Positions 986 through 1,235 of a DNA stretch of 4,361 nt are shown here, piece by piece (position 1 is the first letter of the stretch; every line of letters starts with the position of its first letter). The DNA is taken from the NCBI RefSeq assembly GCF_003334335.1, contig NZ_QOWQ01000079.1, one strand, 5' to 3'. A model generated the notes under the pieces. That model did no database searches, was not told where the DNA came from, and saw nothing but the letters and a program-made list of their open reading frames with translations. Position numbers and translations under genes: made by a program. Source of the DNA: Escherichia coli (GTDB lineage Bacteria > Pseudomonadota > Gammaproteobacteria > Enterobacterales > Enterobacteriaceae).

Positions 986-1061
986 GGCCCTTTAGCTCAG
1001 TGGTGAGAGCGAGCGACTCATAATCGCCAGGTCGCTGGTTCAAATCCAGCAAGGGCCACCA
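986..1061 (+). tRNA. ileZ: tRNA-Ile2 (anticodon CAT, lysidine-type, ileX/ileZ-like; would be called tRNA-Met by anticodon alone)
   Basis: Hand-folded cloverleaf: acceptor GGCCCTT/AAGGGCC, D-arm GCTC-AGTGGTGA-GAGC, anticodon loop CTCATAA (CAT at 1019-1021), T-arm GCTGG-TTCAAAT-CCAGC, discriminator A plus encoded CCA. Overall sequence is very close to E. coli tRNA-Ile2 (ileX) as I recall it. Gene symbol is assigned by analogy with Stx-phage tRNA clusters. Confidence 0.9.
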
Positions 1062-1068
1062 TCACATA

Positions 1069-1145
1069 CCGCCATTAGCTCATCAGGAAAGAGCGCCAGC
1101 CTTCGAAGCTGGTTGCGCGGGGTTCGAGTCCTCGATGGCGGTCCA
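1069..1145 (+). tRNA. argN: tRNA-Arg (anticodon TCG, reads rare CGA)
   Basis: Cloverleaf: acceptor CCGCCAT/ATGGCGG, D-arm GCTC-ATCAGGAAA-GAGC, anticodon stem CCAGC/GCTGG with loop CTTCGAA (TCG at 1103-1105), T-arm CGGGG-TTCGAGT-CCTCG (one G-U pair), discriminator T plus CCA. Symbol is by positional analogy only. Confidence 0.85.
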
Positions 1146-1158
1146 TTATCGGTATTCT

Positions 1159-1235
1159 GCGTTGTTAGCTCAGCCGGACAGAGCAATTGCCTTCTAAGTA
1201 ATCGGTCACTGGTTCGAATCCAGTACAACGCGCCA
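1159..1235 (+). tRNA. argO: tRNA-Arg (anticodon TCT, reads rare AGA)
   Basis: Cloverleaf: acceptor GCGTTGT/ACAACGC, D-arm GCTC-AGCCGGACA-GAGC, anticodon stem ATTGC/GTAAT with loop CTTCTAA (TCT at 1193-1195), T-arm ACTGG-TTCGAAT-CCAGT, discriminator G plus CCA. Symbol is by positional analogy only. Confidence 0.88.

Follow-up and report, generated by a model that had tools for sequence, protein, structure and literature searches.

A putatively self-contained ileZ-argN-argO operon in an stx-less lambdoid prophage unit of Escherichia coli, probably an optional supplement for the rarest codons of the host

Which genes are served by a cluster of phage-borne transfer RNA (tRNA) genes that read the rarest codons of their host, when the unit that carries them lacks stx? 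This question is raised by a 4,361-nucleotide (nt) stretch of Escherichia coli DNA (assembly GCF_003334335.1, contig NZ_QOWQ01000079.1; the whole stretch is hereafter called the window), in which three tRNA genes at positions 986–1235 lie upstream of nanS-p, a gene of the sialate O-acetylesterase type. An initial annotation of the sequence had proposed that these tRNAs serve the late or cargo genes of the phage generally, here nanS-p, rather than the toxin specifically. Our analysis sustained the separation from the toxin and did not support the assignment to late and cargo genes. With a probability of roughly 0.7, we consider that the 986–1235 segment is the ileZ-argN-argO operon of Stx-type lambdoid prophages, and that it acts as a self-contained and optional supplement for the rarest codons of the host.

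Each of the three genes could be folded into a full cloverleaf with its CCA end encoded, and all of them exceeded the Rfam tRNA gathering score of 29 bits (Table 1). Compared with the genes named ileZ, argN, and argO in the O157:H7 Stx2a phage Stx2a_1447 (AP012536), they were identical at 76 of 76, 72 of 77, and 76 of 77 positions, respectively. The anticodons CAU (tRNA-Ile2), UCG, and UCU fit the initial description of the trio as readers of AUA, CGA, and AGA.

For the first of these genes, ileZ, ARAGORN and several phage records of GenBank give the label tRNA-Met, whereas PGAP calls it tRNA-Ile in related genomes. Its sequence is identical to that of K-12 ileY at 70 of 76 positions, and the alignment showed that the pairs C4-G69 and C5-G68 are retained, as in ileX and ileY; the acceptor arms read GGCCC...GGGCC, like those of ileX and ileY, whereas metT and metU have U4 and A5. 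These two pairs are TilS determinants that are absent from tRNA-Met, and they were reportedly defined by Ikeuchi and colleagues in 2005. As this CAU tRNA keeps the identity with ileY and both pairs, we conclude that it is a tRNA-Ile2 and that the "Met" label of ARAGORN is a naming artefact; it would read AUA after lysidine modification by the host TilS. The designation of ileZ as tRNA-Met is a recurring annotation error and has been taken for a strain difference, the two labels being presented as distinguishing O157 strains in one genome comparison (PMC5552260). A sub-threshold Rfam match to Plastid-ycf2 was also seen on the minus strand at ileZ (986–1061), and probably reflects the resemblance of this gene to plastid trnI-CAU; this and the other sub-threshold Rfam matches (Esr41, OmrA-B, anti-hemB, and UCA1) were dismissed, either as chance matches or as by-products of similarity to tRNAs.

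Concerning the two arginine tRNAs, argO shares with K-12 argU its anticodon loop and the elements A20, C35, U36, and G73, and no close K-12 counterpart of argN was found among argU, argQ, and argV. Judging from the anticodons, argO (UCU) would decode AGA and, by wobble, AGG, and argN (UCG) is expected to decode CGA and, by wobble, CGG. The major elements by which arginyl-tRNA synthetase (ArgRS) recognizes its tRNAs are A20 and C35, together with U36 or G36, and a purine discriminator (A73 or G73) is a minor one. The major elements are present in both genes, where a GGA motif gives A20, in addition to C35, and argN has G36. The discriminator is G73 in argO, whereas argN has U73 and a first pair C1-G72, which are identical in all 19 distinct argN variants; the tRNA-Arg species of the host have A73 or G73. 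The window also shows a G-U wobble in the anticodon stem of argO (1189–1199), where 44 of the 45 other copies have G-C, a G52-U64 pair in the T stem of argN (1120–1132), common to 8 of the 19 variants, and a spacer of 7 nt instead of 9 nt between ileZ and argN, a polymorphism that has been reported previously.

The three genes appear to form a transcription unit of their own, bounded by a putative sigma-70 promoter and a putative intrinsic terminator. The promoter-like element upstream of ileZ was first picked by eye and then tested by conservation. A consensus promoter scan called no plus-strand promoter near the tRNAs, the element at 948–976 scoring 8 of 12, just under the threshold. When 50 variants of the sequence that carry ileZ were compared across viral contigs, the TTG of the −35 box was invariant and TATTAT was invariant at five of its six positions and conserved at 0.98 in the sixth, while the spacer and the flanks varied in sequence. 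The boxes were separated by 17 nt in 49 of the 50 variants, and the distance from the −10 box to the tRNA was of 9 or 10 nt in all of them, filled in the window by 9 GC-rich nt. The promoter of K-12 ileX is built in the same way (TTGCGA, 17 nt, TATAAT, 10 nt), and a "pS tRNA promoter" was named within this interval in a study of O157:H7 (PMC2858043). On the other side, the hairpin that follows argO folds at −13.6 kcal/mol (z = −2.47); most variants retain it, as a rule followed by a T-run that is longer than the one in the window, and it is also present in the Stx2 phage.

Conservation also separates the tRNA genes from their surroundings, with a nucleotide diversity of 0.05–0.15 in the tRNAs (that of argN being biased low, as the loci were chosen by 17 nt of this gene) versus 0.28–0.47 in the flanks. 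The ileZ copies were identical in 41 of 48 cases, and the changes found in stems were mostly wobble or compensatory. Covariation support for the cloverleaves was weak, since the copies are too similar and no more than three of the stem changes affect both partners of a base pair; the case for the cloverleaves rests for this reason on purifying selection, which, to judge from these alignments, is strong on the tRNAs, including those of stx-less units.

The closest complete genome is 97.8% identical to the window across its whole length and places it in a lambdoid prophage inserted at yecE (hereafter, the related prophage). The gene order there is Q, a MazF-like toxin gene, a small open reading frame (ORF), a DNA methylase gene, the tRNA genes, small RNA (sRNA) genes, the esterase gene, the lysis genes, and the head and tail genes. 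Stx2 phages show the same order with stx2AB after argO, and the published layout agrees (PMC3491183, Fig. 5). The operon is located in the late-operon leader: Q and the DNA methylase gene precede it, and a variable cargo slot, an STnc100 sRNA gene, nanS-p, and the lysis genes come after it. At the end of Q, the related prophage has a promoter-like site (putative pR') that is followed by a terminator, and several more terminator-like sites precede the tRNAs, so that a local promoter would be needed for expression in the lysogen. We propose that in lysogens the tRNA operon is transcribed independently, and that after induction its output may be boosted by read-through from the Q-antiterminated pR' and by replication of the phage DNA.

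To compare codon usage, the annotated genes of the related prophage (13,545 codons) were tabulated against a host set of 31,449 codons, taken from two 50-kb stretches of K-12 and the chromosomal flanks of the prophage. This was the check that the initial annotation had suggested, and rare codons were more frequent in the prophage than in the host. Per 1000 codons, ATA amounted to 8.4 in the prophage and 2.4 in the host, AGA to 7.6 and 1.1, AGG to 4.1 and 0.6, CGG to 13.4 and 4.1, and CGA to 4.4 and 3.0 (p = 0.02); for these five codons combined (hereafter, the five codons), the odds ratio was 3.5 (p = 3e-72). The trio had been said to read the rarest sense codons of E. coli, which needs some adjustment, as the rarest is AGG, with AGA, ATA, and CGA coming next, followed by CGG. 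If wobble at U34 is allowed, the five rarest codons of the host are exactly the set that the trio could decode, and four of them are the four most enriched codons of the prophage. The lambdoid gene pool as a whole uses the five codons at about three times the host level.

This load is not evenly distributed among the prophage genes. The sum of ATA, CGA, and AGA was higher in early genes than in late ones (26.3 versus 17.4 per 1000, p = 0.0008). For the five codons, the highest value of the prophage was that of the MazF-like toxin gene (115 per 1000), and high values were also found in xis (72), int (63), the cI-like repressor gene (60), and the genes for holin, lysozyme, and Rz (51–57), versus 15.5 for the major capsid gene and 0 for the major tail gene. 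By codon content, the main beneficiaries of the operon would be the genes of regulation, lysogeny, and lysis, together with stx2A in phages that have it, and neither nanS-p nor the major structural genes would be among them. As a separate observation, made in the related prophage and also in the phage PhiR12_1, CGG is abundant in head and tail genes (18.5 and 17.0 per 1000, versus 4.1 in the host), and CTA hardly occurs (0.1–0.2 per 1000).

The operon also appears to be optional; related phages lack it and show the same codon usage. In PhiR12_1, whose recorded host is K-12, no tRNA gene was found anywhere in the phage, and its rare-codon use over the whole phage was 22.4 per 1000, versus 20.4 in the tRNA-bearing prophage (p = 0.29). 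Then, 85 distinct nanS-p alleles were collected from viral contigs, 37 of them with the full trio upstream and 19 with no tRNA. The alleles with the trio contained the three codons at 11.1 per 1000 and those without tRNA at 9.6 (p = 0.054), with values of 17.7 and 17.3 for the five codons (p = 0.76). No difference was detected in the flanking genes either, with 25.3 (trio) versus 28.0 (none) per 1000 upstream (p = 0.11) and 20.1 versus 19.4 downstream (p = 0.77). In agreement with this, codon adaptation did not differ between lambdoid phages that carry the three tRNAs and those that lack them in a published analysis (t-test, P = 0.93; PMC4631060). The codon excess is a property of the lambdoid gene pool as a whole, regardless of whether the tRNAs are carried.

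Several points weigh against reading the operon as a codon supplement. An excess of codons does not by itself demonstrate any importance of the tRNAs, and the match between the decodable set and the enriched codons is partly automatic, because the rarest codons of the host are expected to be enriched in any weakly biased gene set. Since codon use does not differ between phages that carry the trio and those that lack it, a benefit, if there is one, must be modest or conditional. In addition, CGA, the cognate codon of argN, is only weakly enriched (4.4 versus 3.0 per 1000, as above); if argN matters, its main substrate may be CGG rather than CGA. The U73 discriminator makes a tRNA a poorer substrate of ArgRS than A73 or G73, and together with C1-G72 it lowers the certainty that argN is charged efficiently, though not that of its identity. 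Finally, the counts over the whole prophage were made in a relative with 97.8% identity and not in the genome of the window itself.

Among the other explanations, lysogenic conversion fares best, although we regard it as possible rather than probable. According to it, a constitutive operon would mainly benefit the host by helping to translate acquired genes rich in rare codons, such as those of other prophages, effectors, and islands. The conserved promoter and terminator, independent of pR' and Q, are in line with this, as is the fact that int, xis, and the cI-like repressor gene are among the richest users, and argN would provide a decoder absent from the compared K-12 set. The trio (at least 80% query coverage) was found in 2579 of 5426 complete E. 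coli genomes, at 7569 places and with up to 13 per genome, but so many copies may just mirror the number of lambdoid prophages per genome. Lysogenic conversion is compatible with the codon-supplement reading and does not exclude it.

The place next to the operon is where the window departs from the Stx phages. Positions 1–1270 are 96.6% identical to the Stx2 phage Stx2_95, where the homology breaks at 1270 and restarts at 1786, so that a 515-nt segment (1271–1785), with the first of two STnc100-family sRNA genes, occupies the place of stx2AB. Both sRNA copies span positions 1–206 of the RF02076 model, whose gathering score is 47 bits, and an identity of about 73% was found between the 5' parts of the two. 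A single copy is found directly before nanS-p both in Stx2_95 and in PhiR12_1, and the second copy of the window is the constant upstream neighbour of nanS-p. Spacers with two STnc100 copies recur in other prophages, but their copy 1 is another allele, with 72% identity to that of the window; the junction between argO and sRNA copy 1 as seen in the window was present in only 6 of the 5426 complete genomes. The distance between argO and nanS-p in 76 trio-bearing viral contigs fell into classes of about 490, 975, 1450, 1845 (stx2), and 3900 nt, and stx was located downstream in only nine of these contigs. From these distance classes and the rarity of stx, we conclude that the site after the trio is a variable cargo slot whose stx-less state is the common one. 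A bolder proposal, which we hold to be rather unlikely as a whole, is that the tRNA operon and the STnc100 gene are RNA-gene bookends of a recombination-prone slot, here with a second, diverged sRNA of the STnc100/PasD family instead of a toxin, and that the operon is a constitutive lysogenic-conversion module altering decoding in the host (including a tRNA-Arg(UCG) that the host lacks), in favour of rare-codon-rich lysogeny and regulatory genes over late structural and cargo genes.

The same data bear on the idea that the trio was selected mainly for the translation of stx2A, its stx-less copies being leftovers of toxin loss or module shuffling. This is attractive in that stx2A is by far the heaviest user, with 72 per 1000 in its 319 codons, 11 times the host level and five times that of nanS-p, including ATA for 15 of its 20 isoleucine codons (75%) and six AGA, and in that stx directly follows the trio in Stx phages. 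The distribution does not fit: against the 2579 genomes with the trio, a junction between argO and stx2A was found in 599 of the 5426, a count in which the stx1 junction is not included and which, thus, understates the linkage to stx. The rarity of stx in trio-bearing viral contigs, the signs of purifying selection on the tRNAs in stx-less units too, and the absence of these codons from stx2B point in the same direction. No remnant of stx was detected in the window by tblastn or blastn, so that the unit indeed lacks stx, as the initial annotation had it, and its view that the trio is not specific to the toxin holds. We consider this toxin-centred origin improbable.

Still less probable, in our judgement, is that the trio is kept to serve the downstream late and cargo genes, here nanS-p, whose CGA, AGA, and ATA codons would need it. 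The nanS-p product shows the domains that a NanS-p esterase should have, namely an N-terminal DUF1737 domain (E-value 2e-15), a SASA esterase domain (2e-8), and a C-terminal DUF6645 domain (9e-32). The tRNAs are upstream of the gene on the same strand, and the codons singled out in the initial annotation are in frame, namely the tandem CGA-AGA at 3341–3346, AGA at 2885, and ATA at 3377, out of a total of four CGA, four AGA, and one ATA. The claim that the esterase gene uses the codons of the trio stands insofar as they are present and AGA is enriched (6.1 versus 1.1 per 1000 in the host, p = 0.008). It stands only marginally for the sum of the three codons, which at 9 of 660 (13.6 per 1000) is slightly above the 6.5 of the host (p = 0.044), and not for ATA alone, which is not enriched; in the five-codon sum, nanS-p is lower than the rest of the prophage (22.7 versus 38.8 per 1000, p = 0.036). 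The tRNA-less PhiR12_1 carries a nanS-p gene that is 96% identical to that of the window, with every CGA, AGA, and ATA codon unchanged, and among the alleles described above, the CGA-AGA tandem was commoner without the trio (7 of 19) than with it (3 of 37; p = 0.022). Neither are the tRNAs directly upstream of the gene, as had been stated, since 971 nt (1236–2206) with a hairpin, two sRNA genes, and several terminators intervene between argO and the ORF. Together with the higher load of early genes, the PhiR12_1 and allele comparisons speak against the proposal that the tRNAs serve late and cargo genes. More generally, the presence of rare codons in a neighbouring gene is no evidence that nearby phage tRNAs serve that gene.

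Phage tRNAs may also stand in for host tRNAs lost during infection or induction, when anticodon nucleases or toxins that target tRNAs cleave or deplete them, a form of counter-defence that is established for other phages. The MazF/PemK-like toxin gene located just after Q in the related prophage would suit such a role, but ileZ and argO do not differ in their anticodon loops from the host ileX/ileY and argU, which offers no obvious escape from cleavage, the set fits the rarest codons of the host and not known nuclease targets, and no nuclease partner was identified in the analysis. Given the match of the anticodon loops, we rejected counter-defence as the main explanation and give it very little credence. 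Lastly, tRNA genes are common attachment sites of phages, and a preprint took the tRNA matches near Pas sRNAs as integration hot spots and reported none in phage genomes (bioRxiv 10.64898/2026.05.13.724894), but we rejected, as barely conceivable here, the reading of the trio as inert integration-site remnants or decayed host copies, because it lies about 16 kb inside the related prophage, counted from int/att at yecE, is present as an internal phage operon in deposited Stx phage genomes (LC567838, AP012536), and keeps full cloverleaves with CCA ends that are far more conserved than their flanks.

Table 1. Features located in the window, with their coordinates, strand, and the basis of each assignment.
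Feature	Coordinates	Strand	Basis and details
DNA methyltransferase gene, 3' part, cut by the window start	7–945	+	ORF; annotation in related prophage and Stx2 phages
Promoter-like element	948–976	+	−35 TTGCAG (948–953), 17-nt spacer, −10 TATTAT (971–976)
ileZ, tRNA-Ile2 (anticodon CAU)	986–1061	+	ARAGORN; Rfam tRNA, 72.5 bits
argN, tRNA-Arg (UCG)	1069–1145	+	ARAGORN; Rfam tRNA, 55.7 bits
argO, tRNA-Arg (UCU)	1159–1235	+	ARAGORN; Rfam tRNA, 66.7 bits
Terminator-like hairpin GGCTCGCTTCGGCGGGCC and T-run, closing the tRNA unit	1249–1275 (hairpin 1249–1266)	+	Scan
STnc100-family sRNA gene, copy 1	1369–1577	+	Rfam RF02076, 122 bits; own terminator 1540–1567
STnc100-family sRNA gene, copy 2	1773–1985	+	Rfam RF02076, 147 bits; own terminator 1955–1974
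Terminator-like site between sRNA copy 2 and nanS-p	2082–2097		Scan
nanS-p type sialate O-acetylesterase gene, 660 amino acids	2207–4189	+	ORF; Pfam; annotated as SASA family esterase or yjhS

Regarding the remaining features of the locus, the DNA methyltransferase gene is the usual upstream neighbour of the tRNA cluster. On the minus strand, a promoter-like site (2213–2185) followed by a strong terminator (2013–1992) could give rise to a transcript some 190 nt long that is antisense to the leader of nanS-p. This candidate (1983–2213, minus strand) was rejected, as its fold was no better than those of shuffled sequences (z = −0.44) and it matched no Rfam family. After nanS-p, a minus-strand terminator (4215–4203) and a very weak Esr41-like match (4195–4269; 23 bits, gathering score 102) were observed, and the end of the window (4190–4361) corresponds to the position, between the esterase and holin genes, where the PasA and PasC sRNAs are reported. 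Outside of the window, the MazF-like gene of the related prophage is a PemK/MazF-family toxin gene (L001, 18853–19197) placed directly after Q, with no annotated antitoxin beside it.

The tRNA trio, its adjacency to stx, and its occurrence in lambdoid prophages are already established, and in this respect the finding is an ordinary one. The ileZ-argN-argO cluster was reportedly first described by Plunkett and colleagues in 1999, in the genome of 933W (933W/Sp5 type). The operon of the window is like the cluster of Stx phages in its anticodons (CAU, UCG, UCU), order, strand, and spacing, all within about 250 bp, in its neighbours (Q, the DNA methylase gene, cargo, yjhS/nanS-p, and the lysis genes), and in its putative promoter and terminator elements. 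In contrast to that cluster, it is followed by a second, diverged STnc100 gene and not by stx, and it shows the 7-nt spacer between ileZ and argN and the single G-U wobble in each of argO and argN. In Stx phages, a cargo (moron) slot with stx1 or stx2 separates Q/pR' from the lysis genes; the slot of the window has the same position and flanks, but it holds the 515-nt segment with an sRNA gene instead of a toxin operon. The promoter layout (TTGCxx, 17 nt, TATxAT, 9–10 nt to the tRNA) is that of K-12 ileX, whereas, in contrast to K-12 ileX, ileY, and argU, the tRNA genes of the window are phage-borne, clustered in an operon, and multicopy, and the stems of argO differ from those of argU. Finally, as in the large tRNA sets of virulent coliphages (T4, T5, and relatives), which are considered to offset differences in codon usage between phage and host, the decoders supplied are for codons more frequent in the phage than in its host, but here the set consists of three tRNAs only and belongs to a temperate phage, its carriage is unlinked to codon usage, and its autonomous expression in the lysogen is likely.

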